This document shows positions 16,160-64,000 of a stretch of DNA of 64,000 bases, in pieces. The stretch lies in NCBI GenBank assembly GCA_951804945.1, contig OX638166.1:22444001-22508000 (forward strand). Reading direction: 5' to 3'. Position 1 is the first letter of the stretch; each line of letters begins with the position of its first letter. The notes under the pieces were generated by a model. It was not told the DNA's origin. It saw only the letters and a program-made list of their open reading frames with translations, and searched no databases. Position numbers and translations under genes: made by a program. Source of the DNA: Podarcis cretensis (Eukaryota).

Positions 16160-16378
<219 letters not shown>

Positions 16379-18134: not shown

Positions 18135-18278
<144 letters not shown>

Positions 18279-23138: not shown

Positions 23139-23860
23139 TAAAAACATTGTAGACTGTACAATGTTCACTTTATTTTTTTCTTCAGCTTCATATTTGGCAC
23201 CTACATTCTGGCAAAATATCTACCCTATTTCCCCCCCTACAATGTACTTTTTCTGGGGCCAAACTCAAGCAGGTCCCATTAAGACAAAATTTGGCTGCCA
23301 TGAACCATTGTGTTAGGCAGTGAACACCAGCTGTCCCAATTTGAAGTCAATGTGTCTGAAAGACGGGGCTGCAGCAAGCAGCTTTTCTTTCAGAGGCTGC
23401 GTGGTTTCATGTGGGACTGCTTTCAGGTGCACCACATAAAAACCAAAGCGAGACTACAGCACTCCCTGTCACACAAACATAGATCATAGACCCATAGGAA
23501 CCCAGGTGTGCATCCTTATGATGCCAAAATGGTACCATCCACACAAAATACGGAGGCATCTGCAGGTTTGGGTGAGCCCCAGGTTCTATAGGGGGGAAAT
23601 CTTCAGAAAAAACTCTGAACTCCTACATAGTCCAACAAGGAATGGGCATTCTCAGAGGGAACAGAATGCTGACTGATTCTTTGAAGGCGGTGGCGAGAGA
23701 GACACAGAAAACCAGCTGGAGTATTATGGAGAGGGAGTGGCTGTCTGGGAAACTAACAGTAGAACACTACAACATTTTTTTCCAGCTTCTAGCTTTTATT
23801 ATTATTAGTTAGATTTATACACCACCCTTCATATCTCAGGGTGGTTCATAGACTAAAATA

Positions 23861-23953
23861 CAGTGGTGCCCCGCAAGACGAATGCCTCGCAAGACGAAAG
23901 AGTTTTCCGTTTTGGAGGTGCTTCGCAAAACGAATTTCCTATGGGCTTGCTTC
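23861..23953. mobile_element. Truncated Tc1/mariner MITE (family of 26916/28200/33928, opposite orientation) nested in an L2-like remnant
   Basis: TA-cagtggtgccccgcaagacgaatgcctcgcaagacg; followed by L2-like gagcattccacaaatggggagccaccacagagaaggccc. Confidence 0.75.
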
Positions 23954-24290
23954 TCTGGGGAGAGCATTCCACAAATGGGGAGCCACCACAGAGAAGGCCC
24001 GTTCTCATGTTATAACTCTCTGGATCCTTTTCTGGCAAATTTATATTTCGAAAGTTGACCTGGTGTTCCATCTAGTGTTAACTTGCAGTGTGAGATGTTC
24101 AGACTGCTGACATGACCACTCCTAAATGCCTTCTTTCTCTGAACAGAGCTCAACCACCACCTTGGCTCACCAATAAACTGATGCCAATGAAGTAGATGGG
24201 GGAACAAGCAATGATGCTTGGCCACTAGCCCTTACTTCTTTGAAAACAGAGAGCCTAGTAAGTTAATTCCCCTTCCTCCTGCTACCATAC

Positions 24291-24414
24291 CATCATCAAT
24301 CAGTCTTTTCTGATTTCCGTTGCTCTGTTCTGTTGGCTCCTGTTTCGTAGGTTGCTTTTTTACTTTATCCTTCTTTTCTTTACTCGCCATAGCTTCCAAA
24401 TAGCCTTCCGGGTA
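24291..24414 (-). CDS. UHRF2: UHRF2 exon 13 (basic linker)
   Basis: tgcag|TAC...G|gtatgg; YPEGYLEAMASKEKKDKVKKQPTKQEPTEQSNGNQKRLIDD; 124 bp. Confidence 0.94.
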
Positions 24415-25001
24415 CTGCAAAAGAAGAACATCAGGTCTGAAAAGTATCTTAACAATGTCCAGAATGACATCATTTTTAAAACCAAACTAACTTAAAATTA
24501 GGGCACAGAATGTAAGGAGCAGGCACCTGCGCAACTGACTCACAAAAAAGATCTGTCACAAGGGCATAAGCTGGACCTTGCTTTAAGATTCCTACCCTGG
24601 GACAAAAAACAGACAGACAGACCTCTGGGCTGTAGCTAACTCTTTTGCTTTTGACTTTCATTAGGGGAATGGCAGCTGTTTACCATTTCTTAAATTTTAT
24701 CAACCTGTCTAGGAATCCAAATGTGACCAAATGATATGAACATGACTACACACTTGATCACATGCAATATGAAATAAGGTATGGGCCTATTTCAGGCTTC
24801 TAAAACCTGTTCAATAAAGATTAGAGAGGAAAGAATAAATCATCTTGTTTTAACTAGCTGCCTTAACATCTTCAAAGTTGATCTTAATGAAGCTGGCTAC
24901 CAGAGATTTTCAAGAGAGTGCAGAGTTTCTCTAACATAGATGTTGTAACAGTTATGTTTCAAAAAAAACTTTTTAGAACTACAGTAACTTGACGTTCTAA
25001 C

Positions 25002-25139
25002 CTGTACACTCAAGCCCAATTTCTTTGACCTTTCCATTCCTTCTGAGGTCCATGGGGCAGGTTCAGCATCATCTCTTCTCAGAAGATAGCGCCAAACTAA
25101 GAATCCACATTTTCCAATTTCAGGCCAGTATTTCACCAC
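25002..25139 (-). CDS. UHRF2: UHRF2 exon 12 (SRA C-terminal)
   Basis: tttag|GTG...CAG|gttaga; [46 protein letters not shown]; 138 bp. Confidence 0.96.
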
Positions 25140-25558
25140 CTAAATGATAAAAGTTCCTATCACTGTTATGTTTTATCTTCCACAGTCTGAAGGCCTGTCC
25201 AATTAAATCCCTCCACTCCCCCCATTTATTATAATAAGTTTAATAAATGTCACCTCTATGTATTCATCAGTTTTAAGATAAAATGGTGCTTTCTGAAAAT
25301 GCAAGTTGATGCCTAGATCTGACTCTATTTCTATCATTTCTCATAATCTGCACTATCCTGTATGAGACTTCCTGAGACAGCAATGCACACCTAATGTGCA
25401 TAAACAGCTTAACTGCTGTATGTGCCCTGTGGGCCAATAAGAGGACAAATTTTTCAGGAAGATTCCCTGACTCTCTGGAGAGGCTTTCCAGGGAATACAA
25501 GGAAGTGCAGAAGTTGAGGCAGGGGGACAGGAAAGCCAGTTGTGCAACCCAAGATAAT

Positions 25559-25992
25559 TGTCAGGGAACTGCCATTGGAGCCAGAGGGAGAGGGAGGGCT
25601 CCAGAGGGATTCCGGAGAGCGTCCCGGGAGGGAGAGAAGCAGCCCATCTGCTGGGGAAGGAAATCAGCGTAGCACCAGTGGAGAAGGGGGGCAGATGGGG
25701 GAATCGGCGAGGGGGCTCCATGACTCCTCGCCAGAGACCAGCGGGGAGAGCACGGGTCCTCCGCTGCCCACACCCTCCCTGCGCAGAAGGCTTCCACGCA
25801 GGGAGAGTAGGCGGAGACTAGGCATCAAAGAGCTTCTTTGCTGGAAGAAGTTCAAGAAACGCCCACTGACGGATTCTGCCAGCGATTGAGACAGCCACGG
25901 ATGGGTGGCTGTCCGGACAGAAAGGGTTTACCCAGGTACCCCAGCCAAGCGTGGCGCTGACTTACGCACGAGCAACCCCTAGAACCATTACA
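25559..25992 (+). mobile_element. Solo LTR (434 bp), same family as 5347-5800
   Basis: TGTCAGGGAACTGCC...CCATTACA; perfect 5-bp TSD ataat (25554-25558, 25993-25997). Confidence 0.88.
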
Positions 25993-26065
25993 ATAATTTT
26001 CCCTAAAACTCAAAATGCTTTGCTCTTTTTTAAGGCAAGAAACGTTAAAGTAGGAAAATACGCAC

Positions 26066-26228
26066 TTTATAAATGCCATCGTATCTGTTGCCTTCTTCAG
26101 GGGCATATTTGCTGATCCTTCGGCCCTTTGAGCTGCGAACCACTCGGACTGGCTTACCAGCTCTCCACTTTTTAGACTCGGCTCCATTTTTGTCATCCAG
26201 GGGGGCATCACAATTTAGCGCCAGTGCC
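26066..26228 (-). CDS. UHRF2: UHRF2 exon 11 (SRA)
   Basis: ttcag|G GCA...AAA|gtgcgt; [54 protein letters not shown]; 163 bp. Confidence 0.97.
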
Positions 26229-26602
26229 CTGAAAATGAAAACAACAAAAAACATAAGACATAATGCTTCCTCAAGTATTAAGAGAACAAGCAAATATCTT
26301 ACTCAGCTATTTCAAGTTAATTTTCCATGGGATGCAGAAGATAAAGCATTTTATTCAAGCTGAAGTTAAGAATTATTGACATAATGCCGGCACAACAGGA
26401 TTTCCCCCTGCATGCACCTGGAGGGTTTGGGGTGTTTGCAAAACAGATATAAGGGACACCCCAGGGCGAGGAGAACATTCCATTGCACAAGAAAAAAATT
26501 ATTGTGCTGATGGAACTGCTTAATGCTACACTGAATATAATCCAAAAGCAGATACAAGTAACATATAAAAACTAAGTTAAATTACCAGGCCACCATCTAA
26601 GG

Positions 26603-26787
26603 CAGGGGTTGTCAATCTGGTCCCTACCGCCCACTAGTGGGTGTTTCAGGATTCTAGGTGGGCGGTAGGGGGTTCTACAGCACAAGCTGAATCCTCCTTC
26701 CATCGAGCACTGGTGGGTGGTAAGGAAATTTTACCATCAAGAAAGATGCATTAGTGGCGGTAGGTATAAAAAGGTTGACTACCCCTG
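26603..26787. mobile_element. hAT-type MITE
   Basis: TIRs caggggttgtcaatct / aggttgactacccctg; 8-bp TSD atctaagg / ctctaagg. Confidence 0.85.
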
Positions 26788-26915
26788 CTCTAAGGCGTAA
26801 GAAAACATTCCCATGCAAACCAAATACTTTCCCATGTAAATTTCATTATTATTAGTCAATGAAAATTAATTCTAGAATCTGCCTGCTCCCATCACTGCTT
26901 GCTCCCAAGTAAATA

Positions 26916-27294
26916 CAGTGGTGCCTCGCAAGACGAAAAGAATCCATTCCGCGAGTCTCTACATCTTGTGGTTTTTTCGTCTTGCAAAGCAAGCCCATTA
27001 GCGGCTTAGCGGATAAGCGCTATTAGCGGCTTAGCGGATCAGCTGATAAGCGGTTTAGCGGATAAGCGGCTTAGCGGATCAGCTGATAAGTGGCTTAGCG
27101 GATCAGCTGATAAGCGGCTTAGCGGCTTAGAAAAAGGGGGGGGGAACCCGCAGGAACTCGCAAGACATTTTCGTCTTGTGAAGCAAGCCCATAGGAAATT
27201 CGTTTTGTGAAGCACCTCCAAAACGGAAAACCCTTTCGTCTAGCGGGTTTTCCGTCTTGCGAGGCATTCGTCTTGCAGGGCACGTCTTGCAGGG
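26916..27294. mobile_element. Tc1/mariner MITE with internal 24-bp minisatellite; right end rearranged
   Basis: TA-cagtggtgcctcgcaagacg; internal gcggcttagcggatcagctgataa repeats; right end ...gtcttgcagggcacgtcttgcaggg-TA. Confidence 0.85.
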
Positions 27295-27924
27295 TATGCT
27301 TAGGATTTGATTCTGATTTGTTTTAGTATTTATATGCCACTTTGTCAACAATAAAGCTGAGCTCATAGTGGCTCACAAATGTAACTAAGAAGTAAAAAGT
27401 AACATTTAAACCAACAAAACCATATTAATATAGCATACAGGCGGTGAGCATTTTGTGCATGCTCAATTGACGCATGACCATCGACGCATGGGTCCTTTTT
27501 GGACCCAGAGGAGGGCAAAATGGGGGCGGAACAGAATGGGGCATAACAGGGTGGCCTTATGAGTGCTCCATCGATGCACACGAGGGCCAGAAACGCAACC
27601 CCTGCACCAAATTGGGGGTTGCCTGTATTAGTAAAGAAAAATAAAGACGCAATTAATGCAATCCAATTTTAAAAAGATGGAGGCATCTGTCTGTCTCAAA
27701 AAACAATGGAGTGCATTTCTGGGGGTGGAGTCAAACCACTGGAAAATCACAGAGTATCTAGATTAATAATAATCAAATTTCAGCAAATAAACAGGTTCAC
27801 TGGAGTGTTTTCTCTATTCTAGAGGAAAAAAATTGTATGAATAGTTCATGATAACATTCAGCGCATAGTTGCGGGAGAGTCAACTTATTTTCTCCTTTTA
27901 ATGTAAGAATGTGGCACAGCTTAC

Positions 27925-28031
27925 CTGTTCATGTGTGTCAAAGTTTGATCAAATGAATGTTCTCCAATCCTTTTATTGCCGGACAGATCTCTTCCACCGC
28001 TCCCAGTGTAAGTAAATTCATCACCTCGATC
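27925..28031 (-). CDS. UHRF2: UHRF2 exon 10 (SRA)
   Basis: atag|GAT...AG|gtaagc; [35 protein letters not shown]; 107 bp. Confidence 0.97.
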
Positions 28032-28199
28032 CTATATGAGGAGATTAATTATTCTTTAAAATGCCAGGACTGCAAAAACTCAAATATACTAGTAAAAAAT
28101 TAATTGTTTTAACAAAGTTAACAATTGCCTCATATATAAAAACAGGTCAGTGCTTGATTTGCTGATGCCACAGATTTTTAGGTCATATCTTTATCAGTA

Positions 28200-28555
28200 C
28201 AGTGGTGCCTCGCAAGACGAAATTAATCCGTTCCGTGAGGCTCTTTGTATAGCGGTTTCTTCGTCTTGCGAAGCAAGCCCATTGACAGCTTAGCGGATTA
28301 GCGCTATTAGCAGTTTAGTGGCTTTTAGCGGATCCGCTGATAAGCGGCTTATCAGTGGATCAGCTGATAAGCGGCTTAGCGGCTTAGGAAAAGGGGGGGG
28401 GAAGGGGGTAAAACCCGCAGGAACTCGCAAGACATTTCGTCTTGCAAAGCAAGCCCATAGGGAAATTCGTTTTGCGAAGCGCCTCCAAAACGGAAAACCC
28501 TTTTGTCTAGCGGGTTTTCCGTCTTGCGAGGCGTTCGTCTTGCGGGGCACCACTG
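28200..28555. mobile_element. Tc1/mariner MITE, complete
   Basis: TA-cagtggtgcctcgcaagacg ... cgtcttgcggggcaccactg-TA. Confidence 0.9.
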
Positions 28556-31500
28556 TATATGAGTATGGGAAGTATACATATATATTACACATAAGAATAT
28601 TGGCTGCTATAAACAACTTTTTAGTAGCATAGATTTGAGTTTGTTTGTCTGGAAAAGAGGTTGATGAGGTACACAGATGAGGAGATTGTTCTCCATAGTG
28701 TTTTCCCCAACCCAAAGTTAAGAGTCTGTCAATGATTTTATTGTTCTAAAATGGATTCTTCAATTACGATACATTGTAAGCCAGTTTAGCACATTCATCT
28801 GTCTTTGCCAACCTGGCTCTTGCTGGGCTCGATGGGAATTATAGTGCAATAAATCTGGAGGGCACTAAGTTGGCAAATGCTGCCTTCTATCATCTCCTCT
28901 CCAAAACACAAATCAACAGATCACAAGGGTCTGTTGGACTCACCCAGAATGATGTTTGGCAAGTTATTCTGACATACCCTGTTCAACTACAGTCATACCT
29001 ACAGTCATACCTTGGCACTCATACATTTTGGCTCCCGAATGCCGCAAACCCGGAAGCGAGTATTCTGGTTTACGAAAGTTCTTTGGAACCCAATTGTCTG
29101 GTGCAGCTTCCACAGCTCCTGATTGTCCGCAGGAGCTTCCTGCAGCCAATCGGAAGCTGCGTCATTGTTTCCAAACATTTAGGAAGTGGAACAGACTCGT
29201 ACTCACTTAATGGTTTGCTACCGTTCCTCAGACATTTTAAGGAATCTGTAACCACATAAGGTAATAATATCCCATTGGTGTTTCTCCACTGGGGAGGAAG
29301 ACAATTTTCAGACATTCTTCCCCTGCCCCCATAGCTCTCCAATCTGCTCTCAAGGGTCCCTCAACCTTCCAGATCAGATTTTGGAGAAGAGGAAATTACT
29401 GAAAATAGTCTCCTTCCCCATTCCACTGAAGGATGCCTCCTATCAGTGGAAGACCCCCTAATGGATACCACACATAAACTTGGAGGGAGGGAATCTAAGC
29501 ACAAGACAAATTCATTCAGCAACTGGGATGAATACAGCAGTTTGCTAAGTATTAATGGGCTAAACAAAGTTGCTATCAATTGTTCAGGGGAAAAAATGTA
29601 ATTTTTCATTTATAAAGAACATTCCCACATTCTCCTGGTAAAAGCATACACTAACAAAATACTAAGGTTTTCTCTCACCACAATACAATAACTGCAAATG
29701 AACTGGAACAAACCTACTGCAACAGAATTTCAAGTATACTCTATTAACATCACAAAAATTTTGGGAACTGAAAAGCAAAGCAAGGGAGGAAGATCTATCT
29801 TTTCCTTTCCTCTTGAGTTGTCAAGAATGTGAGCATGCAAAACAGACTATAAAAATTATTAAAGAAAGGTTGAAATGTGTCGGATAATCCAATTTTAAAA
29901 CGCAGTCAGCAGCAAGAAAATAAGTCAGGCTGTGAGTGGACCTCCTGATACTTTTGTGGCCCCCAAATTGGGCTGATTTGCCCTGTGCCACCCTGGAAGC
30001 AACACATCCACCCCAAAGCAATTCCTATGTCAATATAAAGTTAGAACAGGGTTTTTAAAAGGTCAGGGGATGAGTGCACCAGCACTGTACAGGATCGCAT
30101 CTTTAAGGGGACAGAACTGGAAGGAGAGGCCTGCCGGTGACAGGAAAAGTGAAACCTGGCAAGGGCACCCCTGCCATAGACCTTCTCTAGCAAAGATGCA
30201 GCCACCTGGCAGTTCTCTCATTTTCACAGTGCTGTGGCCTCCTTCTTGCTGATGCCTGTCTCTCCTTCCTTCCTGCCTGACCCTTTACCCCTCAACCTGA
30301 CCTATAGAGATCAGGAGCTGATCCATTGCAGCAACCTACATTTTTAGTTCACATCTTATGAACTAAAAAACGATTAATGAATTATGAAGCATACATGAAT
30401 AATTTATAATGTTTTATAAGCAATCGATAACAGCATTAAGGGCTATTAATTATTATTATGCTACTAGATACATCAATTTAATCCACCTCATAATGAAGAT
30501 GAAGTGGAACGATAACAGATCACTAGACAAAGGTGAGAAACTTAGCTGAGGAAGGGATTTTTCAAGTGCAATCTTAGGCTTGTCTACTCAGAAGAAAGTC
30601 ATCTTGAGTTCAAGGGGACTCAGTTTCATCTTTAATATTTGTTGCATATTCATTTGTCTGTGCCACATTCATTCATTCATTCACATATGGTGTGTGTTTG
30701 TGGGTGTGTTACAGTATTCACAGGAGACCCAGCAAATTCAAGGTACTTAAGTTACCCCAACTGACATCATAATTTTTAACAGACCTATTCTAAGTATGAC
30801 ATAGCTGATCATCATCCATATAGATTTGGTCTTCTAAGGCGGCTTTACTTATCTAAGAGTAAGTCCTACTGAACTCAACAGGACGTTTTCTGAGTAGAAA
30901 CACGAAGAACACTACAAAACCCATTTATCATATTATCATAAGATAACAAAGTCTGTAACTTTAACAGATTTCCAAGTACTTACAAATTCCTATAATAGGC
31001 CATAGTAAAGTAAGGGGCAAAGAGAGAGGATGGAAATAATATTTAAGACCAATATAGATGCAATGCTAGCATGGCCATGTACTTGTGCTTAAGGGTGGAG
31101 ATGAAACCACAGAATTGACCAAGCAGCCCCTTCTCTCACATGCAAATTCCCTTTGATCTCTCTTTCCTTGGTTTAGGATTATGGGTGTTGCCTGGCTAAT
31201 GTTAAGCTATCTGTGCTTGGAATCTAACTTCAGAACCTACTGCAGGTAAGAAGAACTTGTGAAGTAGGAGAAGAGGATTCCGAGAAAGGGGATTTCAACC
31301 CCTTAAACTTAGTTAATAGTGCTGGTTCTACTATAAGTCCAAGTGAAGAAGATTATTCCACAATTATTCATCTTTAGGTTTCTATCATCTTTTCCTGAGG
31401 CACTGCCAAGATCTACTGTTCACTCAACCAAATCAGGTCACTTGTCAGATACAGAAACGATACAGGACTGCAATTCTGGCACAGAGGTTTCTGGATCACA

Positions 31501-42013: not shown

Positions 42014-42232
42014 CCCAGCAAAATTTTGGCATAAACTTCTTTGTTAGTCCTTGAAATCTCTCTCAGAGAGGTTATTTCTGCATCAAACCAGAATCCCCTC
42101 TCTTCCGGACTCTCTACATTGTAGTTAACCATCACCAAATCACCCACACATAATTCATTCCACTTCAAAATAGTTCTTGCTCGTGGTCGTAGATTACGGA
42201 CGGACATTTCTACGATGCCACTCTCTGGATAC
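42014..42232 (-). CDS. UHRF2: UHRF2 exon 4 (tandem Tudor domain)
   Basis: ttaag|G TAT...GG|gtaaga; YPESGIVEMSVRNLRPRARTILKWNELCVGDLVMVNYNVESPEERGFWFDAEIT...; 219 bp. Confidence 0.96.
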
Positions 42233-48050: not shown

Positions 48051-48097
48051 TGTGTTGTGTTGTGTTGTGTTGTGTTGTGTTGTGTTGTGTTGTGTTG
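48051..48097. repeat. (TGTGT)n pentanucleotide microsatellite
   Basis: Direct reading. Confidence 0.9.
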
Positions 48098-48488
48098 TTC
48101 TGTATGCCATGAGCTATGTGCTATAAGAAAAGCAAAAGGACAGAGCTAGCAGAACATGACTGGCAGAGGAAGCCTTCCTTCCCCCCCCCCCCACAATGAC
48201 AGACTCATTTCTGAGGGTGAGGGGCTATATCTCCCTTTGGGATGACATTGCTTGCAGGAAGGCACAAGGGCACTTCCTTAACATCTGCTGAACAGGAGGC
48301 TGCTGGGTTTGCTTCATATGGGCTAGTGACTTAATGGGGATTGGCTGGGTTTCTGTTTTGTCTATGCCTATAAGAATGCTGTATCACATTCCTGGGAAGA
48401 AAAAGAGGTCGTTAGGGAGAGTAGGGAGGACTCCAAGAATGCAGAATGTGACAGCTAGACTACTTACTAAGGACTTAATGGCCTAAAT

Positions 48489-48624
48489 CAGGTACCCCCA
48501 ACCTGCGGCCCTCCAGATGTTTTGGCCTACAACTCCCATGATTACTACCTAACAGGACCAGTGGTCAGGGATGATGGGAATCGTAGTCCAAAACATCTGG
48601 AGGGCCAAAGGTTGGGGGTTCCTG
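48489..48624. mobile_element. Palindromic hAT-type MITE
   Basis: caggtacccccaacct / aggttgggggttcctg TIRs; imperfect 8-bp TSD gcctaaat / gtctaaac. Confidence 0.8.
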
Positions 48625-48895
48625 GTCTAAACAGCAAACTTCAGCTCCAGCCCACTTGCATAGACTGCCAGTCCCACCCCCCAGCAGAATTCTAAGTGCT
48701 GGTTTTGATCCATAAACCACTGCATGGTTTAGGATTCTGAAACCTTATGGACTACCTTCCTTCATGTGAACCTACCCAGATGTTGAACAACATACAAGGC
48801 CCTTCTCTGTGTCCCCTCCAGATGTTGAAAGGGGAGAACCTGCCTTTACGGTGGTAGTCCTGACTGTGAAAAGCCTCACTGATACTCATCTTTCT

Positions 48896-50857: not shown

Positions 50858-53800
50858 GATACTCATCTTTCTAACATCAGGAAAATACAGTTTTATTCTC
50901 TTGGGCACTGAATGATCGGGCCTTTGGTGGCTGTAATGTTCATCGTGTGTTCAGGGAGTGAGTGTTTTCTGTGGTTTCAGTGATTTTTTAATTTTTCTTT
51001 CAGATGAACACTTTTCACATTGTTTTATTGACTTTATTTTGTATATTATATTATCATTATTTAAAATTACATAAGTGATTTATTATATCTGCCTTAAACC
51101 ACTGAATCTGAAATTTCACTGTAGATTCTTTGAGTAATCACCACGTATATTTACACAAATGCCTCTAAATAAAACGGCAGCCTTCATGAATGTAAAAAAA
51201 GTGATTTGATATGAATGATACCTTTCTCCCTATGTTAACAAAGTGACTATGGAATGTAGTTCTTCATTGTTGCAGTTTCCTACTGGAAGCCAGTTGCTTG
51301 CAGAAATCAAGACCATAATCCATCTACAATCACAGTAAGCTACAATGAGGGTGATAAATTAGGATATACCCTTGATTTGGTGGGAAAGCTGAAAGCTAAA
51401 ACTCAGTATTGAAAAGGAACAGGTCGGTTTGCAAACTGGAGGTGTGTTGCTGTTCAACGGAAATACAGAAATTTAGATCTATACATGAAATCCAAACTAT
51501 CTGTGAGACAGGGAAGAATATATGCAAAGATGGATCATCTGGAATTTCTTGGAACTTTCTTATAAAGAAATTGACACCACAAAATTCAAGGTTCTGTCAG
51601 TCTTCTGTACTTCTCTGGCATGTTGAAGTATAGAAAAGTAGAGCTTAGATGACTCTGAGATACTTGAACCTTAATTGCTCCACTTTCCTCTGTATCAGCT
51701 TCTTCCTAAAGAGGGAGGATACAGGGAGAGTACAGACAATCTCTCTTGGGGGTTTACTGAAGGCTGAACAAGATGGTGAGGTGAAGAGAAACAGCAGCCA
51801 AATGGTTCGTTTATATAGTCATCCAATTGTCCTTGTACTAGCTGAAAACTCTGGTTGATGGCACCAATAATTCTGATGCAGTGCATCAGTGTAGAATTTC
51901 CTGGATGCATATTCTCCAGTAGAAGATATAGAAGACGATAGTTTCCAGAGAGCAATGCCATGAATGGTATTAGATGAATAGGTAGACTGGGGTGAGATTT
52001 CAAGAAACCAAGCTGTAATTTTGGCCCCCTTGAGTCCTTCTAAGCTACCATCCTTCTAGATACTAAAACAAACTTCACTAAGGGACAGGTGCTCTGTGCT
52101 GGCCATACTCTATGGAAGCAGTGAAGTAGAGTAAGACTTGGCTTATTGGCAAACAGCAATAGTACTCACCGCATCCTTTGAATCCCAATCATCATTGTAA
52201 CATGTAGTGTTTGTTCCTTAGTAAAGTGAAGTGCATCAGCCTGAAACACTTGAGCCAGATTTTTCTTGTCATCTGGAGTGTGATCAAGATAAAGTATGGG
52301 GTTGTCCCATTGAAAGCATTGGTACCTAGCCTTCACAAAGATAAGAAAATTGTAGACTATAATTTTTTATCCAGAAAACCTAGCTTCCCTCCATGTTGGT
52401 ATGCCTCAGCAAGTGAGTTGATAGCCAAGTGGTTAAAACAAAAGAAGCTGCCCCTTCACTAAAACTTCTTTCCAAGTACTATGAAATGAACAAGAGCTTG
52501 TTTCAAGAATTTTTAGCTATTAAAAGTATAGCTAGTAACATTCACCTGAGGAAGTGCGTATTTCATTCCCAGATATTGGGCCATTCCCTGCACTTATTTC
52601 ATATGAAAGTGATCTTCATACAAAGAGGTAGGATTGGGATCCCCTACAACATGCTCCACTGAAGGCTCCAAGGTTCAGTCTGATAATGTTGACTATGAGC
52701 TATCAAGATGCTAGTATGACCAAGAGTTGTGGCTCATGAAAGTGAGCATGTCTGTGCCCAGAAAGATCATGGAAATATGGCCAGAAAGAGATTGCCAAGG
52801 ATCCTTCAACAGAGATAAGGATAGCTGTAACTATCAGCATTGCATCACAGGAACCAAAACAGCTTCTTAGTCCAGTCTCTCTATCATTCTTATGAGAAAT
52901 ATGGCTCTGCTTAGCAATTACAGTCGCTGCTGAAGAAATACAACCTGTGCTGTTAATGATGATTGTGCAACCCGTACAGTACATAGGCGACAATTATTCA
53001 CACAATTAATATTCTTGTCCAAAAACAATTTTTCACCATTTATCGGATTTGTGAGAATAAGACAACTACTTACAAAGTGCCATGAAAACTTAGAAGCTAT
53101 CTAAAATAAAGTGAACTTGCAATGTCAGATTTTACTAAGTTCTTACAACTTCTTGAATCAATTTTTGTTTTTCCTTGTTTTTTAGGTAAGTTCAAGAAGA
53201 CGGTAGGTAAGCAATTACAGTTGAGCTGTGTTTATTCTGGCTTTTGACACCGCTAATGGAAAGCTGCATATTGTCCAACCCAATCCACCCTGTCTACTAG
53301 ATTCTGCTTGTAACAGCACACATGCAATCACATACAAAACTTAAACCAACACTGAAGCCAGTTAAGAAGCACTTAGCACAGGAATGCTAGAAACCAAGGC
53401 TCGATCCCTAATTGTTAGGTGAAGACAATGAATCAGCATGGCGCTACTTCTTTTTCTTGGAGGCACGGGGGATCAGAGGCTGGGAAACCTAAGAGTGTTT
53501 TCAGTACCTGTTTCCGAACAACTTGGAAGCCACTTATGAGGAACACTTCAAAACTGAACCCTTCAAAACAGTGCAAAACACAGTGCAATGGAGGAGTCTG
53601 ATCTGTGTCCACGGTTCCTAGCATGGAAATAGGGACCAATCTTGGTCCACAGATCCATAGGGTTATCAGCAAAAGTAGGTGCCAGCACTACCCCCCATAC
53701 CCAAAGCCCTAATGAAGTACAAGCAAGACAAGCATTCCCTCAGCGCTCCTCAAAGAGGCAAATCAAGCAATATGCCAAACCAGTACAAGGACTTTCACTC

Positions 53801-54627
53801 TACAAGTATGGCATTTTAAATAAGACTTATGTTATGTTATGTTGTGTTATGTTATGTTATGGGCTCAGTGAAAACTGAAGCAAAAGAGCCCCAAGCAACA
53901 AAAATAAGATACTTACCTACACTATGCTTGCATCTGCATATCAAGCCAAATCACAGTTTACAGCACTATACATGAGCAGGAATGAGCTGAAGTCTGAGAT
54001 TGATTAGCTCCCCTCTTTCCACACAGCCAAGATTTCACTTCCACTTTTGATTAGGAACAACTTACTACATCATCCAGATGCATAACCAAGATTAATCTTA
54101 ACAATGATGGGTTAAAACAAGCCATCAGGGAGACAGGAACTTGTTCCTGCATGAGCAGATCTTACTAAACTAAGGTTTGACATGATGTGCAAAAGCAGCC
54201 CATTCAGTCTATGCAAAATGTACCATCTGAAGATGAACTTCACGGGCAAGACCTGAAAAAATAGTTTCTTAACCAGCTTAAGTGGCACCTGAATAGACCC
54301 TTTGTCCACACAAAGGGTTTATTCCGATGCTACTTCCTTAATCGATTAAGAAATATGAATTAGACTCAAGTTACACACATGCATCTTGGCCTACTCCCTT
54401 ACAAAACTGAAAGTACTGTACTAAAGCCAATGTTCATTATCAAATGAAGAGCCCAGTATTTCATTTTCAATTATGAACGTACAAATAGCTGATATTGTTA
54501 GGTACCCTATAACATCTGTATTAGGTTAACTGCAGAAAGATAACACTGGCCATATAAGATTAAAAACAACAGAATTGAGATCTCAACACAGGCAGGAGGT
54601 CCCCTACCAACTGCTAATACTAGAATA

Positions 54628-54869
54628 CAGTGGTACCTCAGGTTAAGTACTTAATTCGTTCCGGAGGTCCGTACTTAACCTGAAACTGTTCTTAACCTGA
54701 AGCACCACTTTAGCTAATGGGGCCTCCTGCTGCCGCTGCGCCGCCGGAGCCCAATTTCTGTTCTTATCCTGAAGCAAAGTTCTTAACCTGAAGCACTATT
54801 TCTTGGTTAGCAGAGTGTGTAACCTGAAGCGTATGTAACCTGAAGCGTATGTAACCCGAGGTACCACTG
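54628..54869. mobile_element. Tc1/mariner MITE (family B)
   Basis: TA-cagtggtacctcaggtta ... taacccgaggtaccactg; repeated taacctgaag motifs. Confidence 0.88.
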
Positions 54870-55247
54870 TGTATGCTTGTATTTTTACAATATTAGCAAC
54901 CGTAACACATTGTAATTTTATGTTGTGAACCACCCTGAGATCTACGGATAAAGGGCAGTATACAAACTTTAATAATAACAACAACAATAATATATTAAAT
55001 ATTTCTTTCTCCCTCTTGACAACACAAAACATGCCCTTCATGCAAAATATGTAAAACAAACAAATTAATCATCTCACAACAATATCCTTTTATCTACAGG
55101 AGTCAGATCCTGCTCAGGCTGAAGATGTGCATTGGATTTTGACAGAAACATGACCAAGGCCGCACAGTTACTGACTCATTTTGAATCAGGACAACCAGGG
55201 ATCAAGGAGTGGAAGCAAAATATCCCCACCCCTCTCTCCCTGTCACT

Positions 55248-55248
55248 T

Positions 55249-55330
<82 letters not shown>
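55248..55330. repeat. (TC)n-(CA)n-(GA)n compound microsatellite
   Basis: Direct reading. Confidence 0.9.
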
Positions 55331-55333
<3 letters not shown>

Positions 55334-55958
55334 CCATTAAAACACATACTTCCAGTTGGCCAAAGGTTTCTGTGTGTATATTTAGTGACAGTTGTGGCTA
55401 AGGGATTTGGTGTTTGTCCTACTCTGGAAGATGGGTTGAGACCCCATTACTATGCTCTTCACATCAATAAGCAGTTAACAGTGAGCTCATCTGTCTCTCT
55501 AAAATACTTCCTACAGGAAAAGCTAACAGGGTTTAAGTAAATAATGTACTGACAAAACTGTATTCCTATATATTTCTTCACTTATTAATAGTAAACCCAT
55601 TCAGTTTTGTTTAGTAATTCCAGATAATTTTTTTAAGAGTTATGCTCTGATTGTATATACAAAGTACTATAAAACACTGTTGCAAGGCTAATTTATGGAT
55701 TCACATCCTGCGAAAGTCTGGGTTTCTCAAAGGAACTACAGCTAGTATTTCAGCCAAGCTCCCAAAATAAATCATGCTACTCCCAGGAAATGCATTATAT
55801 CAAACAGAAATGTTTTATGGTTTGTAAAATCCTGTTTCTTTTGAACTTGGAATGTGAACTTGCTTTCTTAAGTATTTCAATTTCTTGTGAAAATTCTTAG
55901 CTTATACAAACCATATAAACGCACATGGTGTCCTCATAATAATATCAGCAGCACTTAC

Positions 55959-56221
55959 TCATCATACTTGATATGATAAACAGTATCTTCATCAGTGTCC
56001 ATATAATCTGAGTAAGATGTAGAAGGTGCATTGTCCAAATTATTTGCATTTTCTCTAGAGTGATCTTGGTTTAAGTTTCCATTAGTCCTTTTGTAATTAC
56101 TGCCACTCTTTCCTTGTGCTTTTCCATTTTTATGTCCTTTTGTTGCTTGAGTTACGTTTTGTATATGAGCTTCAAACCAGGATCCAATAGTAACATCTCG
56201 GGCATCCACAAGTTCATTTAT
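55959..56221 (-). CDS. UHRF2: UHRF2 exon 3 (tandem Tudor N-terminal part with UHRF2-type insertion)
   Basis: tttag|ATA...GA|gtaagt; INELVDARDVTIGSWFEAHIQNVT...DTVYHIKYD; 263 bp. Confidence 0.95.
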
Positions 56222-59200
56222 CTAAAAATAAATTTGACATTTAGTGAATGTTATGCCGAAAAAGTACAGAATTAATAATGCTGTGGATCCCCAACTACAA
56301 TGCAACTGCATTAGTTAAATTCACTCTACCTTCACATTCTTAAAACTAAACAGAATATTCTACATTTTGTCAGAAAATCATTTCAACACAAATAAACTAC
56401 AGATGTGAACAGAGCAGCTCTTGTTTTAATTACTATTCTCTCCATCACATAACTATTCACAATCACTAAGGTTACGGAAGCTTTCTAACCTTTGGTTATT
56501 CCTGCTTTTGGCCTGATTTTCCTGTATTTTCCTGCTTTCTTCATTTTCTTTAGACATTTCCTTCTCCACAATAATAATGAAATCCTTTAACTCTGAGAAC
56601 TGTTCTGTGCTCATCCATTTACAAACCATCCTCCAATAAAATAATTCAGCTTTGCCAATGAAAAGGTGATTTTGTGCTTATTATTTTTGCATATACTCTC
56701 TCTAACAGTACACAACTTAACCTTTCCAAATTATCTCTTATGACACAACAAATGCAGTTACTCATTTGTTGTGCAGAATTCAAATGTATTGTTCCTAGGA
56801 AGCACTTCTGAGGAGGGAAAATCACATCACAGAACTCAATGTGTTGGCTCTTGGAAATGTGTTTTTTCTCCAAACCAGCAATTTTACTACAACACTTTGG
56901 GCATTGGGTTAGCAATGGTTGCAAGAAAAAGGCCACAGAAATTATCAACCAGTAACTCTGTGGTCACTGCTGATGCATAAAACAACTCCCTCCATGCCTA
57001 TGCTATTTTGTGATTTATTTGTTTTTTAAATGCTTAATGTAATGCACCTACAATTCTTTAAGGCTGCGTTTCCCACTAACATGCTTTTTAAAGCTACCAC
57101 CATCCCTCCTGCCCTTAACAACAAAACCCAGCACTTTATGGACTATTTCACTTATTCCTTTTTTCACTAAAAACAAAAGCCCGACATACTTTCCTTGCTG
57201 GCCAAGAACTTCTCCTCTCTCCAAGAAAAAGAACACGTCACCTACATTCTTTAAGATACATTTGATTTCATCTGCTAAAACACCTATACTTTTCCTAATG
57301 ATGTCAATGCTCACAACCCACTGCACATTTGCATGTATTTATATCCAACTGCTTATTTACATATTTATATCCAATTATATTTATATAAAATTCAGCAAAC
57401 AGAACTGAATATAGAATAGTGCCCAGCGTCACCTTAGTGCAACCAATAGGAAGTCAAAAAGCACTCTCCCAGTGCTACTCTCTGGACTTTGTCCCGTAGG
57501 TAGAGCTGTAACCGCTGTAGAACTGTAAGCACAGGAATACAGTGCCCCCAATTCCCAATTGGTTCAGGAGGACACCATGGAGGAGTGCAGATGGCAGCTT
57601 GCCTCTGCCTTGCATAAGGGAACCTGCCAAAATCAGGAGTAGCCAACACGGCTTCCTTTCAGATGTTTTGGAATACAACTACCTAGCCAGTATGCTCAAT
57701 GGTCAGGGATGATGGGAGCTCAAGCAGTGCTTACCCCTTGACTAAAGTATATTTAGCTTTGGCAAATAAAATCTGCTGCAACTACAGACTGGCCAATTAC
57801 AATACACCTAGTAGCACACAGTAGCATTATTTTTTTCATATTAACTGGAATGTTACATTTAGCTGTGCACATCAAACAGACTATAACTACAGTTTAAACG
57901 GCCAACCCATATCTATTTATATGATCCTTCACTACACTGAAAGCCACCAACTCTGATGACAGTTTTGCTTCACTATTCTAAAGAGGGAAATAGGAAACAG
58001 TCATTTTGAAAATTGAGTAGTCTAAACCTTGAGTTCCCATCTTGATGCTCACAGGTACCATGGCACCCTCAGACAACCATCTTGGTGCCCAGTAAAACTC
58101 CCTTCTTTTGGAAGCGAGGGACAACAGCAACACTTTTTATTGTTTGGTCGGGGCATACCTGCTTTTCCGGGGCAGAGGGTTGCTTGATTGCTTTTTTGTC
58201 TGATTTGTTTTGGGTGTCTGCACATCACTAGTTTTTCTTCTGTGAAATGGGTTCTTTTGGTGCCCACAAAGCTTTATTAGTTTTCCAAATGAGCCTATGG
58301 GCCCATAAAGTACCCATGATTTAAGCTTAGTCTCACTTCAACAAAAGCCCTACAGAAAAAACCAGTAAGGAACAAAGTTGATGAAAGGAGAGGATTGGAG
58401 GAAAACTTGAGGGAGGCAGTACTGATAGAAAGGAGGAAGCTGACAGACAGACTGAACTATTGATCCAAGAAGACAGAGAAGGCTTCAAGACCATGAAAGG
58501 TCTTAATGACTCAAACCCAGCAGAATAATACTTAACTACACATAGCTAAACTATGTTTTCATTAGCAGTCTTGTGGCTTCCTGTTAAAGCCACACTACCA
58601 CCAAGAACAGAATCTCCATGTCTGTATGCTCCTGTACCATGTTCCTTCTGAGTATGGTTACAGCTGTGCCAGTGTCCAGTTTCCTTAACCCCACTGTGGC
58701 AGGGACAGAAAAACAGGTAGGTGAGTGAGTTGGAATCTTAAGGGGTGGATCTAGCCCACAAGCCATAAACTAGATCACAGAACCTCAAATTAAAGGAGAA
58801 AACGGGGCAATTTTGGCATAGCTCTCGGTATATTTATGGCCTTAGGTGAGCCATTACGTTCAACGTGTGAGCCCTGGTAAGAGGCGCCCAGGATCTGAAC
58901 GATTAACAAAGCCTGAATTCCAGCTGCAGCAGTATGTAGTTCAGTATCAGCAAATTTCTATGGTAACTGAATATTAAATGAGGCATGTGACAAGGCTTGT
59001 ACATTTTCAGCCCAATCAAACCAGTACATAGACTCACTTGCAGTACAGTCTGTAAAATTGTGTAAGAAAACTCAATTTGCATGCTTCTGAAACAGAAGAG
59101 AAATGATATAACATTATCAAAAATAAGGTGCAGTCATAATATAAAAAGAATGTTACACTATAAAGCACCTTTGTTGTGTTCCACATTGCTTCCAGGAGAA

Positions 59201-59617
59201 ACAAGAAAACAAAATAAATGCTAAATATGCTAATCCCAGGTCTTTTGGACACTTAAAAACATGCAATGTATACAACTAATGCTGTTCAGCATTAAAAAAG
59301 AAAAAAGAAAAATATTTAAAATGGACAGAATCTGAACCCAGACCAGGAACATAGTCACAAATGACTGGCAAAGCTTTTCTCCCAAAAATATGACTCTATG
59401 ATTCTGTCAGTAAAGTTCACTAAATTATCACAAAAAAATCAATCAAAAATGTTAAAGAGGGGTATTAGCCTGTCAGAATAACACAGAAGTCCATGATATA
59501 TATGAAGAAACAGAAACTAATATTGGTAACTCAGAAAATAAGACTGATTAAATTTCATGCAGTGTTCATTGAGTCTTGGTTTACTCACCCCTTTTTCACA
59601 GCTTGCTTATGAAAATA

Positions 59618-59784
59618 CCATATTTTTTCCATCTATAATATGCCCCCATGTATAAGATGCCCCCTATTTTGGGGGACTCAGATTTAAGAAAATGAGGGAA
59701 GATGGCCCAGAGTATAAGACGCCCCCTAATTTTTGACATTATTTTTTAGGAAAAAACCCTAATCTTATATATGGAAAAATACAG
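59618..59784. mobile_element. Degenerate pogo/Tigger-like MITE
   Basis: TA-ccatattttttccatctataa ... ttatatatggaaaaatacag-TA; internal tataagacgcccc repeats. Confidence 0.7.
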
Positions 59785-60737
59785 TAAGTACTTTATATCT
59801 ACTTGACACTTTGGGAGCACTTAAGGAGGCATAGGGTACCATTCAAGAGTCATCCTGCACAGAGTAGCCCCACTGATATTAATACATATGAATAACTTAG
59901 ATTCATTAATGTCAATGAGTCTGCCCTGAGTGCTGAACACAACTCAGGATAATTTTCAGAATACACAGTAATTTTCTTACTATAATGTTGGTGGTTTCTC
60001 CTGTTTTTATTGCCTGCTCCTCATATACTGGAAAAATGAAAGAGATGCTAAATTCCTTACAGTTCAGTAGCTTACAGCTTCATTTGCAATAAAACATTTA
60101 AAAAGTAGATATTCAATTTGGAATTGACTGAATAAACACTATTTTAAGGTATCAAACATGATAATTTAACGACAAACCAAGATATACATAATACGTTTTA
60201 TGTTTCTAAAAATGAAAGGAGGACTAAAAAAGGTACTGCATGTTTTTCCGTTTTCCCAAAAATTCATTTTGGGTAAAAAAAACCCTAGAAAAACAAACAT
60301 TTTCCATGGCTTCAAAATTCCTAGATACCAGCTTTTTCATGACATTAACGGAAGAGGGCTCTTTCAAGTTTTATCCCATCAAATAACTTGAAAATACATT
60401 CTAGATTCAATGAATCCATTGAGTTTTAGGCTTTATTACACCTGAAATTTCGTAAAACCATTACAGTGCATTTGTGCCTACGGCAGAGGAGTTTCATGTA
60501 GACCAGTGGCAGGAAAGCTATGGAGCACATCAGGCTCATGAAGCCTTTTGAACTGTCAAACCAGCCTCTGGAAATTGGAGATAAAGGGTTCAACTCCAAA
60601 AGTGGGGAGGAAATCTTATTCCTCCAGCAAGGATACTGTTGCTCCTGGAGTCCCAGGGGCAGTGTTATCCCACCGCCAGCTATTTTCAGGGCTACAGTCT
60701 CTTTTTCACTCTCACCATTAACTTGTATGGAGTAGAG

Positions 60738-60873
60738 TAGTGATGGACAAACTTGGCCCTCCAGCTGTTCTGGGACTACAATCCCCATCATCCCTCACCA
60801 CTGGTCCTGTTAGCTGGGGATGATGGGAGTTGTAGTCCCAAAACAGCTGGAGGGCCAAGTTTGGCCATCACTC
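60738..60873. mobile_element. Palindromic hAT-type MITE
   Basis: agtgatggacaaacttggccctccagctgt...acagctggagggccaagtttggccatcact; long near-perfect inverted arms. Confidence 0.8.
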
Positions 60874-61064
60874 GAGGAGGATCCCTTCAAATGGCTTGGG
60901 GTGGGTGGGAATTTATCCCCCTGGAAAGAGGGGCAACTAAATTTAGAGAGAAATCCAATATACAAACCTCAAGCTTTACTTAACATTTTTTACTTCACAA
61001 TAGTCATGAGAGTAAAATTTATATGTAAAATTATACAGTCCAAAATTTACAAAAATACAAATAC

Positions 61065-61307
61065 CTTGTATCGTCCAATGCCAGGATCAATAAGAAACGA
61101 ACGTGCTGATGTAGATGGCTGATTAGATGATCCACTGTTTGCTCCTTGCTTGGCTTTGTTCTTACAGTTCACAACTCCACAGGAACTGGGATTTCCATCT
61201 TCATTCGTTGATGGAGAAGCAGGAGCATCAGATTCTGAGCGTATCAAAAGCTGAACTATATCATTCAGTCCAACATTATAATCAAATAAGGTGTGTCCAT
61301 CTTCAAG
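61065..61307 (-). CDS. UHRF2: UHRF2 exon 2 (UBL C-terminal half plus linker)
   Basis: gatag|CTT...AAG|gtattt; LEDGHTLFDYNVGLNDIVQLLIRSESD...PSTSARSFLIDPGIGRYK; 243 bp; exon 1 not in window. Confidence 0.96.
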
Positions 61308-62883
61308 CTATCCAAAACAAAATTCAGGGAGGAAAGCAATCAGCAGATGTTAGTTCAAAAGTTTGTATCTTAAAATATAAAGAATTACATCAATATATAA
61401 CCTGGAGATATAGATTGATATAATATAAATATAAATAAATAAATACTCCACACTAGCTAAATCAAACTATACTGATAATTGGATCAGGACCAGTTGATAC
61501 TGAGAAGTTACAGATTGAAACAATACTATTCATTTGGTCTTTAGAACAGTATTATTACTAACTTATGAAAAGCTTAACTACTTTGAACAAAAAGCTATAC
61601 ATATAAATATGTCAAGATCTGCTACCTTCAATATCTGTTTCATGACAAATGAATGTTGTGTAATAAAAAGGATACGTTAAGAACAGAAACTCATTATACA
61701 CCCCTACATCTATGACCAGAGGAATATATTAAAAGTGCTTTCATTGTTTAGTTTTATCATTCACATTTCCTAATATCATTGTAGTTTTTAAATCTAAAAA
61801 AGCAATGTTTTTCAAATTTAAACTTGATGGTTTGTATTCAACTCTATGTTTTCTTCCTACAGTCCTTCGCTTTAGAGTACAATCCTGCAGATATAGATAT
61901 ATTTAAGTGCAGTTAAGTCTTGTTCATGGTGTAAATACCAGGTCCACTAATTCTGGCCATCACAATTGTTGGTTTGGAGGAATACACAGATAATTCCTAG
62001 AGAACATGTAACAAATTTATATGAAAAATAAAACTAGAAGTGTGACAATGTATCACTACTAGAGGGTTTCCCTACACAAAGACATAGGCCAGGATTCAAA
62101 GCACTTTCTGTACAAGTATAGTTCCCTTTGCCCATCTTCTTTTGCTCACCCAAACTCAGTCTCAAGTTTTTCAACTCCTTTTACAACTGTATCTCAGAGT
62201 CTGTGGACCACCAACACATTTATTTATAAAGGTACGTATATACTGCTTTCTCAAAAAAATAACAGGGTGATTTACAGCAATATAAAAGCATTAGAAACAT
62301 TAAAAGTAGTACTAAACAATCATTAAAATAATGGGTTACTCAAGAAAATTGTAAACAATAGAATAGGTGTGTTGCCATAAAAAAGTATTCAAGAGATGCC
62401 TATTATATGCACTTCCTCTTCTCTACCAAAATACCAGTTGGACGAGACTCTTTTAAATGTAACAAGAAGTTTTGTTTTGTTTTTTATTTTACTGGAGGAA
62501 AGAAGTGACTAAACAAAGCAAAAATATTTTCCATAGGGATCAATTAACATTAAAACAAATCAGGTTAAGAGATCTCTGAAGTTTACGAATTTCTGCTAAT
62601 CTGGCTTTTCTAGAAATTTACTAAATTAGGACACTAAGAATAGAGGCTCTGCTACAATTAGGAATCATTTTATTTTAGTTTCTCTTTTAAAGTTCTTTAC
62701 TGCAATGGAGCACCATGACAGTAAAGAAACAACAATAATTCGCATCTCTCAAAAAATTATGAAGCAACTTGTTTCCTGGGCAATAAAAGAATGTTTTCAA
62801 TTAGAAAAACCGGGGGGGGGGGGGTGTTTAAAAATGAAGAGACAATCAGAGGATGAAATGTTACTGCAAAACATTCTAAAATA

Positions 62884-63109
62884 CAGTGGTACCTCGGGTT
62901 ACATACGCTTCAGGTTACAGACTCCGCTAACCCAGAAATAGTACCTTGGGTTAAGAACTTTGCTTCAGGATGAGAACAGAAATTGTGCTCTGGAGGCGCA
63001 GCAACAGCAGGAAGCCCCATTAGCTAAAATGGTGCTTCAGGTTAAGAACAGTTTCAGGTTAAGAACGGACCTCCGCAACGAATTAAGTACTTAACCTGAG
63101 GTATCACTG
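62884..63109. mobile_element. Tc1/mariner MITE (family B), inverted relative to the 54628 copy
   Basis: TA-cagtggtacctcgggtta ... taacctgaggtatcactg-TA; reverse complement aligns end to end with 54628-54869. Confidence 0.88.
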
Positions 63110-64000
63110 TAGTAAAAATCTAACTGACTATAAAAGTTAGTGATCTAAAATTCAGACCCATGAGCTTCTTTCAGGTGGTCAATTGTGAGGGGGGGGGAGA
63201 GAGGGAGAGGGAAGACGATAAGTGGTTTTCAATATGGTGATATATCACCAGCTAAGCATCACAATATATCACAGTATCTGCTTGCCTGCTGATGAGTGTG
63301 CGATGATTGCCAATATTGTCGTTTATCCATTTTAGACCCCCAAGTAGTAGCAGTTACCAGAACATTGTCCTGTTTGCCTCCGTATAGTTCCATCCTTATT
63401 TCCAACATTGTGGTATATTGCAATGTTTAGCTGGTAGTAACATTGTTTAGGTGGTGATATTGTGAGGTTTAGCTGCTGATAACACTGCAGTGTTTAGCTG
63501 GTGAACTGATGTTAAAAAAGCAGATATTGCCTAGCCCTTGCACACATTGTAATTTGTGATATATTGCTGTGTGTATGTGTGCGTGTGCGTGCGTGCATGA
63601 ATCTATCTCCTATGCATGTTCTGAATACTATGCATGGGAATCTGAATCCTGGGAATAAGAAACACTGAATACATTAGAACTTACTTCCAAGTAGACATAG
63701 GAATGTAATGAACAAATTACTAGCTTGCCCAAGACTACCCAGGTACCTGTGGGTTCTTAGTCTCTTGTACTACAAACTATCCAAAGTTTCATATTCACAA
63801 TGATGGGTGACACTGTACAAGAGACTAAGAACCCACAGGTACATGTGCAGAGGACTATGTTTTTTGAACATATAATATAATCTGGTATAATACAATATCT
63901 AGTAATATTGGTGAAACAAAATAAAAACTTATGATCAGTATTAATTATAGGCATTTGTTTCAGGAGTGAGGAGGCATAACATATGTGAAGTGGGGGCGGG

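Follow-up and report, generated by a model that had tools for sequence, protein, structure and literature searches.

Do two transposon copies lying in opposite orientation in the introns of a lacertid lizard's UHRF2 gene help to produce a circular RNA? The window, a 64-kb stretch of DNA (64,000 nucleotides), contains UHRF2 on its minus strand, adjoining GLDC. An earlier note on this DNA had proposed that an inverted pair of MITE copies (A and B) brackets exons 2 and 3 and promotes their back-splicing. It appears, with a probability of about 0.55, that the pair raises exon 2-3 back-splicing as a contributing by-product of insertion at TA sites and is not a selected device. In other words, the pair is plausibly a by-product scaffold of a known kind for a predicted circle.

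The inverted MITE pair and the exons between its copies

The inverted MITE pair around UHRF2 exons 2-3 is real, and the coordinates and geometry given for it earlier were correct. Copy A lies 1089 bp beyond the exon 3 donor and copy B 1576 bp before the exon 2 acceptor, ~8 kb apart. The inverted arms (54626-54843 and 62894-63111) match at 91% over 218 nt. When the full-length copies are aligned, 208 of 226 aligned bases are identical and there is one 16-nt indel; an extra 16-nt subterminal repeat is present once in copy A. Both copies carry both of their own terminal repeats, and the similarity between them ends at the TA sites. When the flanks were compared, the observed scores were reached by 35 of 200 and 17 of 200 shuffles. 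The flanks are thus unrelated, which indicates that the copies are separate insertions; a segmental inverted duplication was rejected. These two are the only copies of their family within the window.

Exons 2 and 3 have AG/GT ends and a single reading frame runs across both. UHRF2 residues 1-51 fall outside the window and presumably form one exon, as judged from the human gene; the exon numbering rests on this assumption. Intron 3 is 13726 bp long and intron 1 at least 2.7 kb, of which 2.7 kb is inside the window. Exons 2 and 3 were said to be the only exons between the copies, but a 47-nt cassette exon (60027-59981) is also located there. Its site matches an 18-aa insert of the isoform X1 proteins of Podarcis muralis and P. 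raffonei. The exon is in frame in the Podarcis annotations, whereas here it lacks 7 of 54 nt and carries a stop at codon 7. Exons 2 and 3 together amount to 506 nt, which is no multiple of 3, and their removal therefore shifts the frame. The longest ATG frame in the predicted exon 2-3 circle is 31 aa, ruling out an endless ORF.

Table 1. Features of the UHRF2 region, in positions of the window
Feature	Position	Strand	Remarks
MITE copy A, Tigger-type, 242 bp	54628..54869	+	UHRF2 intron 3; left flank TA, right TG
MITE copy B, Tigger-type, 226 bp	62884..63109	-	intron before exon 2; TA on both sides; inverted relative to A
UHRF2 exon 2	61065..61307	-	243 nt, residues 52-132; acceptor is the predicted back-splice acceptor
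UHRF2 exon 3	55959..56221	-	263 nt; donor is the predicted back-splice donor
UHRF2 exon 4	42014..42232	-	forward acceptor competing with back-splicing; 13726 bp after exon 3 donor
Cassette exon, UHRF2 intron 2	59981..60027	-	47 nt, AG/GT; candidate poison exon
Palindromic repeat, UHRF2 intron 2	60739..60872		134 bp; folds on itself; copies near 6997, 21425 and 48496
CT/GA microsatellite hairpin	55232..55331		between copy A and exon 3 donor
Second MITE family, similar ends	23859..28557		23859-23953 inverted relative to 26911-27283 and 28198-28557

Predicted pairing and known circular RNAs

Can the two copies pair? A duplex between them is predicted at -394.7 kcal/mol, while the copies fold on themselves at -74.9 and -75.2, giving a net -244.7 kcal/mol; when one copy was flipped as a control, the net value was -0.7 kcal/mol. 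The proposed pairing is thus possible by prediction and depends on orientation. The predicted duplex contains 208 Watson-Crick and 7 G-U pairs (215 pairs), with a longest unbroken run of 69 and 5 A-C mismatches. Seven of the 18 substitutions between the copies retain a G-U pair and 11 break pairing, as well as the 16-nt indel. Copies A and B constitute the sole long reverse-complementary match between intron 3 and the 2.7 kb of intron 1 in the window. Pairing of the palindromic repeat in intron 2 with its intron-3 copy was rejected because it yields no net energy gain. The locus has sequence features of repeat-driven circRNA loci, namely reverse-complementary sequences in the flanking introns, a canonical donor and acceptor, and long flanking introns. 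By prediction it also offers the long near-perfect duplex within one transcript that makes an ADAR substrate.

How would the pair act? Two non-autonomous Tigger-type MITE copies would have arrived by independent insertions at TA sites of the long introns that flank exons 2-3, their opposite orientation being presumably a happenstance of landing. In nascent RNA that retains both introns, the copies may pair over ~225 nt and loop out ~8 kb. Such pairing would place the donor of exon 3 close to the acceptor of exon 2 and could increase back-splicing, giving a non-coding circle of 506 nt, or of 553 nt if the cassette exon is included. The human locus circularises as well. ADAR probably edits the duplex. 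The pair would then be a side effect of transposon insertion that is tolerated and that contributes to the circle.

A mammalian circRNA of UHRF2 exons 2-3, mentioned in the earlier note, does exist. Human circUHRF2 (hsa_circ_0002359) consists of the same exons, measures 491 nt compared with the 506 nt predicted in the lizard, and was confirmed in human cells with Sanger sequencing and RNase R (PMC10295973). That paper does not describe the flanking repeats of the human circle and contains 0 occurrences of 'Alu'. The strong predicted duplex, its standing as the sole long match between intron 3 and the part of intron 1 in the window, and the human circle from the same exons all argue for the preferred reading.

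DNAREP1_DM is a DNA-type (Helitron-derived) element. In Drosophila, inverted DNAREP1_DM transposons flank the laccase2 and PlexA circRNAs (Kramer et al. 2015, PMC4617980). The laccase2 circle was detected, and its pairing requirement was shown by deletion and compensatory mutation. The inverted pair that it needs is 75% alike over 106 nt, which is weaker than A/B, and in the minigenes tested there short or weaker repeats were enough. The lizard locus shares with laccase2 an inverted non-Alu transposon pair, long introns, an early exon, and putative lineage restriction. Pairing at laccase2 brings the back-splice sites together, as is predicted from sequence for the lizard locus. The lizard pair differs in being a Tigger-type MITE, 92% alike, located >1 kb from the exons, and enclosing two exons. 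The repeats at laccase2 are said to sit very near their exon, whereas in the lizard 1.1 kb (copy A) and 1.6 kb (copy B) separate the copies from the splice sites and 8 kb separate them from each other; this difference was counted against the preferred reading.

A second comparison comes from mammals. Gruhl et al. (2021, PMC8516420) describe convergent circRNA loci in opossum, mouse, rat, macaque, and human that are driven by dimers of young transposons specific to the species, and argue for a by-product model. The lizard locus has in common with that work an orthologous gene, the exons of a human circle, a reverse-complementary pair of putatively lineage-specific transposons, and the by-product model. 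It differs in that the element is a DNA-transposon MITE, the host is a squamate, and the circle is only predicted; the enriched elements in the mammalian study are SINEs, and 'DNA transposon' has 0 occurrences in the main text. UHRF2 was not found in the available supplementary text (26,479 characters). The idea that a DNA-transposon pair is recruited convergently in place of Alus is thus, as a concept, already published (PMC4617980, PMC8516420).

Literature searches for circRNAs with MITE or DNA-transposon pairs in flanking introns, and for MITE-driven lizard circRNA, returned no match. Lizard or reptile circRNA or back-splicing was absent from the titles and abstract starts of the matches listed, and a search on UHRF2 circRNA conservation in chicken and mouse returned unrelated reviews only. 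For DNA transposons in zebrafish circRNA biogenesis the match was a single review. Rfam at gathering thresholds gave 0 matches in 60000-64000 and 42000-59000. An exon-3 frame running on into exon 2, as in a back-spliced contig product, was seen in 0 of 132 proteins compared (120 of 221 matches, plus 3, plus 9 of 9); this test is insensitive and provides no evidence against a circle. A search of sequencing runs found at least half of the search words in 14 of 24 rows (7 organism labels, 5 studies); none of the runs listed is recorded as RNA, and the rows guessed as RNA had shares of at most 0.14, which is no evidence either way.

Chance, selection, and competing readings

How far does the layout exceed chance? 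When repeats were placed at random with the copy numbers of this 64-kb window only, as opposed to a genome-wide density, a pair as good arose around exons 2-3 in 306 of 40000 trials (0.8%) and around at least one UHRF2 exon block in 4662 of 40000 (12%). Under a within-2-kb null, exons 2-3 were bracketed in 352 of 20000 placements and some block of the two genes in 6362 of 20000. The layout is beyond chance modestly for exons 2-3 and much less so for the whole gene. Its rarity around exons 2-3 was counted against the preferred reading, as selection or a bias of insertion could have had some part in it. At window density, the A/B family alone would bracket ~119 per 100,000 exon blocks.

Several lines of evidence point to a by-product. 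A and B are 92% alike, as would be expected in a window whose other repeat pairs range from 89 to 96%, and inverted copies of the second MITE family lie within 2 kb on both sides of UHRF2 exons 11-13 and 10-13. Random placement brackets at least one UHRF2 block equally well in 12% of trials, and the circle's longest ATG frame is short. The mammalian study argues the same model (PMC8516420).

The pair could instead be inert. Intron 1 or 2 would then be spliced before copy A, 8 kb downstream, is transcribed, or helicases or editing would undo the duplex, and any exon 2-3 circle would stem from the long flanking introns, proteins, or repeats farther up intron 1. Back-splicing competes with co-transcriptional splicing, and this was counted in favor of inertness together with the distance of the arms from each other and from the splice sites, the 13.7-kb intron 3, and the frequency of such layouts around some block of the two genes. 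However, the predicted duplex is very stable and has no rival partner in the flanking introns within the window, and the minigene results show that lesser repeats can suffice (PMC4617980); inertness is rather unlikely. On the opposite view, an abundant circUHRF2 would be driven chiefly by the pair, which would have been retained, like the DNAREP1 pair at laccase2; the pair would divert pre-mRNA from the coding message and tune UHRF2 dose, perhaps with the stop-bearing cassette exon. This view draws on the identity of the exons with those of the validated human circle, the 0.8% chance for exon pair 2-3, a circle length that is no multiple of 3, and the stop-bearing exon inside the loop. Yet the pair-breaking substitutions, the indel, and a divergence like that of other window repeats give no sign of selection on pairing, and in mammals shared circRNA loci have dimers that decay no differently from others (PMC8516420), leaving such a role distinctly improbable.

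A broader version is very unlikely: that the circle of exons 2-3 is common to amniotes and persists because unrelated transposons have been recruited to it again and again, the Tigger-MITE duplex being its main driver in lacertids and setting UHRF2 dose with a lineage-specific cassette exon turned poison exon in this species. Least credible of all is a common origin of the copies in one local inverted duplication, or as ends of a larger composite element. The presence of only two family copies in 64 kb would fit it, but both copies have two terminal repeats of their own, they are alike only up to the TA sites, the flanks are unrelated, and conserved host exons lie between the copies. Should the circle prove real and dependent on the pair, the rule from mammals and flies that any abundant repeat supplies pairing would reach reptiles, with a cut-and-paste MITE. 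At present the locus is a single predicted case of an arrangement to be expected at many loci.

Transposon class of the two copies

The copies had been called mariner-type. Their terminal repeat matches Tigger/pogo elements instead, in a comparison that covered pogo/Tigger tables only. The repeat starts CAGTGGTACCTCG, as does that of a Mesobuthus Tigger (DD36D, CENP-B_N/HTH_Tnp_Tc5) and of invertebrate elements from Tachypleus and Euprymna; a fourth row, from Dufourea, has the same 13 terminal bases. These first 13 bases are thus common to 4 of 4 rows matched by a 12-base search in Table S1 of PMC9219625, and to one Tigger-sheet row of PMC7386202 (supplementary file 3). The same terminal repeat occurred in 0 of 5 squamate rows among the table rows listed, and a search of literature main texts for terminal-repeat sequence words gave no transposon paper by title among the matches listed. 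The earlier note had called the scaffold lizard-specific; related MITE ends are present in 12 metagenome contigs as well as in the invertebrate Tigger elements. By scope of inspection, no autonomous transposase was recognised near similar ends in the 12 metagenome loci (ORFs of at least 90 aa inspected by eye; 11 of 12 contigs shorter than 3 kb).

Tigger elements use a TA target site, as do copies A and B. Unlike full Tigger elements, the copies measure 226-242 bp and lack a transposase. They are short, non-coding, and bounded by terminal inverted repeats matching over ~20 bp, as in TA-targeting MITEs of the IS630-Tc1-mariner group, and a TA target-site duplication is seen as TA/TA around copy B and TA/TG around copy A.

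Inverted MITE copies around exons 2-3

The inverted MITE pair around exons 2-3 of UHRF2 is a real feature. The two copies lie where the earlier note had placed them, copy A in intron 3 and copy B in intron 1, and their arms (54626-54843 and 62894-63111) are 91% complementary over 218 nt in an inverted-repeat search (BLAST E 8.7e-84), where ~90% had been claimed. Aligned end to end, the copies are identical at 208 of 226 aligned bases and differ by one 16-nt indel, an additional subterminal repeat carried by copy A. Both have their own terminal inverted repeats, and they are the only members of the family within the 64-kb window.

The host gene, on the minus strand, is UHRF2: the bit score of exon 4 is 114.7 with human UHRF2, compared with 91.4 for the best UHRF1 chain. 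Exon 3 shares 98% identity with UHRF2 of Podarcis muralis and no more than 92% with any of the other 119 proteins among the matches listed, which makes the host a lacertid lizard. Fifteen exons were mapped from residue 52 to the protein end; residues 1-51, beyond the window, we take to be a single exon, after the human gene. Exons 2 (243 nt) and 3 (263 nt) both have AG/GT ends. Copy A lies 1089 bp beyond the exon 3 donor, inside a 13,726-bp intron, and copy B 1576 bp ahead of the exon 2 acceptor, in keeping with the ~1.1 and ~1.6 kb first proposed. GLDC (glycine decarboxylase) 3' exons stand tail to tail with UHRF2.

Coordinates of repeats and exons in the window
Feature	Position	Length	Flanks or remarks
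MITE copy A	54628-54869	242 bp	TA / TG
MITE copy B	62884-63109	226 bp	TA / TA
Cassette exon, UHRF2 intron 2	59981-60027 (-)	47 nt
Second MITE family	23859-23953 (inverted partial), 26911-27283, 28198-28557, 33926-34261		similar TA-flanked ends
Palindromic family	60739-60872, 48496-48629, 6997-7125, 21425-21501	~134 bp
Dispersed family	4868-5214, 16509-16862, 45351-45707	about 350-370 bp	three copies
Other dispersed family	96-458, 13248-13417, 43806-44175	about 350-370 bp	three copies
GLDC 3' exons	about 1200-18300 (+)
Inverted copy of exon 6 3' part	47908-47965 (+)	58 bp	matches 37848-37903

Predicted pairing and the likelihood of a circle

Can the two copies pair? On the transcribed strand, the predicted A:B duplex has an energy of -394.7 kcal/mol. 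The self-folds come to -74.9 and -75.2, which leaves a net gain of -244.7, computed for isolated strands and not for the 8-kb loop during transcription. With one copy flipped, the predicted net gain is only -0.7 kcal/mol. The A:B duplex contains 208 Watson-Crick and 7 G-U pairs; of its 11 mismatches, 5 are A-C, and the longest unbroken run is 69. It is also the sole long reverse-complementary match between intron 3 and the 2.7 kb of intron 1 that the window covers.

How unusual is this layout? A null model re-placed 12 oriented copies, belonging to four repeat families, randomly outside exons; two pairs that are older or shorter were omitted, as was the palindromic family, and the densities come from one window. 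With approximate exon limits and distances of up to 2 kb, 352 of 20000 trials put an inverted pair of one family around exons 2-3; 4580 did so around some UHRF2 block of up to four exons, and 6362 around a block of either gene. Pairs no worse than the real one (each copy within 1.6 kb and at least 200 nt long) enclosed exons 2-3 in 306 of 40000 placements and any UHRF2 block in 4662. The layout is thus uncommon for exons 2-3, which favours the earlier note, but nothing unusual in a lizard gene rich in repeats. At window density, about 119 exon blocks per 100,000 would be bracketed by the A/B family alone. Two more UHRF2 blocks, exons 11-13 and 10-13, are enclosed by the second MITE family; one arm there is a 95-nt partial copy, and the predicted net pairing is weaker (-94.7 and -74.7).

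The 300-bp flanks of copies A and B are unrelated, as their scores were equalled in 35 of 200 and 17 of 200 shuffles. They therefore indicate two insertions and make origin from a single duplication event very unlikely. We favour, at a probability of roughly 0.55, a chance product: two insertions that happened to be inverted would pair in some nascent transcripts and so add to a low-level, non-coding circle of exons 2-3. The pair would instead be inert if splicing outruns pairing, a reading that we consider appreciably less probable. That the pair has been kept as the principal driver of the circle and plays a part in UHRF2 dose appears improbable; the 92% identity of A and B falls inside the 89-96% span of the window's other repeat pairs, and shows no sign of selection for pairing.

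Precedents bear on the proposed convergent recruitment. Human circUHRF2 (hsa_circ_0002359; 491 nt, Sanger sequencing and RNase R) consists of exons 2-3, bearing out the mammalian circle cited in the earlier note, and the paper makes no mention of Alus (PMC10295973). The predicted lizard circle would involve identical exons. According to PMC4617980, Drosophila laccase2 is flanked by DNAREP1_DM transposons in inverted orientation, which match at 75% across 106 nt and are missing from most other species; deletion and compensatory mutation showed them to be necessary for the circle from plasmids, and PlexA shares this layout. Likewise, PMC8516420 links orthologous-locus circRNAs of five mammals to young species-specific transposons and interprets them as convergent by-products, whose transposon dimers decay like others. 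Convergent recruitment is therefore an established idea, and novelty, if the proposal is true, is limited to the taxon (lizard) and the element class (MITE). Among the papers listed by the literature searches, which cover subscription journals thinly, none reports a MITE-driven or lizard circRNA.

Exon content of the candidate circle

Exons 2 and 3 do lie between the copies, but not alone as had been supposed, because a 47-nt cassette exon is also there. In isoform X1 of P. muralis and P. raffonei, 18 in-frame residues are inserted where exons 2 and 3 join, and this insert maps to the cassette in two frames. The cassette's acceptor is AG with a pyrimidine-rich stretch, its donor GT. In this genome it is 7 nt below 54, with a stop at codon 7. 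Among the 120 homologue clusters listed (at least 120 exist), the insert occurs in the Podarcis cluster only; a 7-residue insert in one other cluster is unrelated to it. The cassette is possibly a lineage-specific poison exon. The predicted circle would be 506 nt, or 553 nt with the cassette; neither form is open all the way round, and ATG frames reach 31 aa at most. An exon-3 frame running into exon 2 occurred in 0 of 132 related proteins, a search too insensitive to bear on the circle. Five of the 132 join the exon-3 end directly to apparent exon-5 sequence, which suggests annotated in-frame exon 4 skipping in other sauropsids. The inverted 58-bp exon 6 copy lies within intron 3 at a distance of 10 kb from exon 6 (91%, E 1.6e-17), and is antisense to that exon just ahead of its donor in the pre-mRNA (predicted net -70.5 kcal/mol).

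Family assignment and other repeats

The terminal repeats point to Tigger and not to the mariner type first proposed. The first 13 terminal-repeat bases are those of four invertebrate Tigger elements (Table S1 of PMC9219625) and of a Mesobuthus Tigger whose transposase has CENP-B_N/HTH_Tnp_Tc5/DDE_1; the source of the latter ranks pogo as a superfamily apart from Tc1/mariner (PMC7386202). A metagenome pattern scan found 12 loci with similar ends, all preceded by TA. Six have ~76 terminal bases in common with copy A at 75-78%, and two contain complete MITEs (L008, 259 bp; L011, 252 bp). No transposase was recognised among the ORFs of the 12 loci. Their MITE-like ends adjoin eukaryote-like sequence in the metagenome contigs. 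By its ends the family is Tigger-like, a putative assignment drawn from pogo/Tigger tables.

The second MITE family has an internal 8-bp-unit repeat, with three near-full copies in 7 kb besides the inverted partial. The two dispersed families look similar to squamate SINE or LINE tails. Every full copy of the palindromic family is predicted to form its own hairpin.
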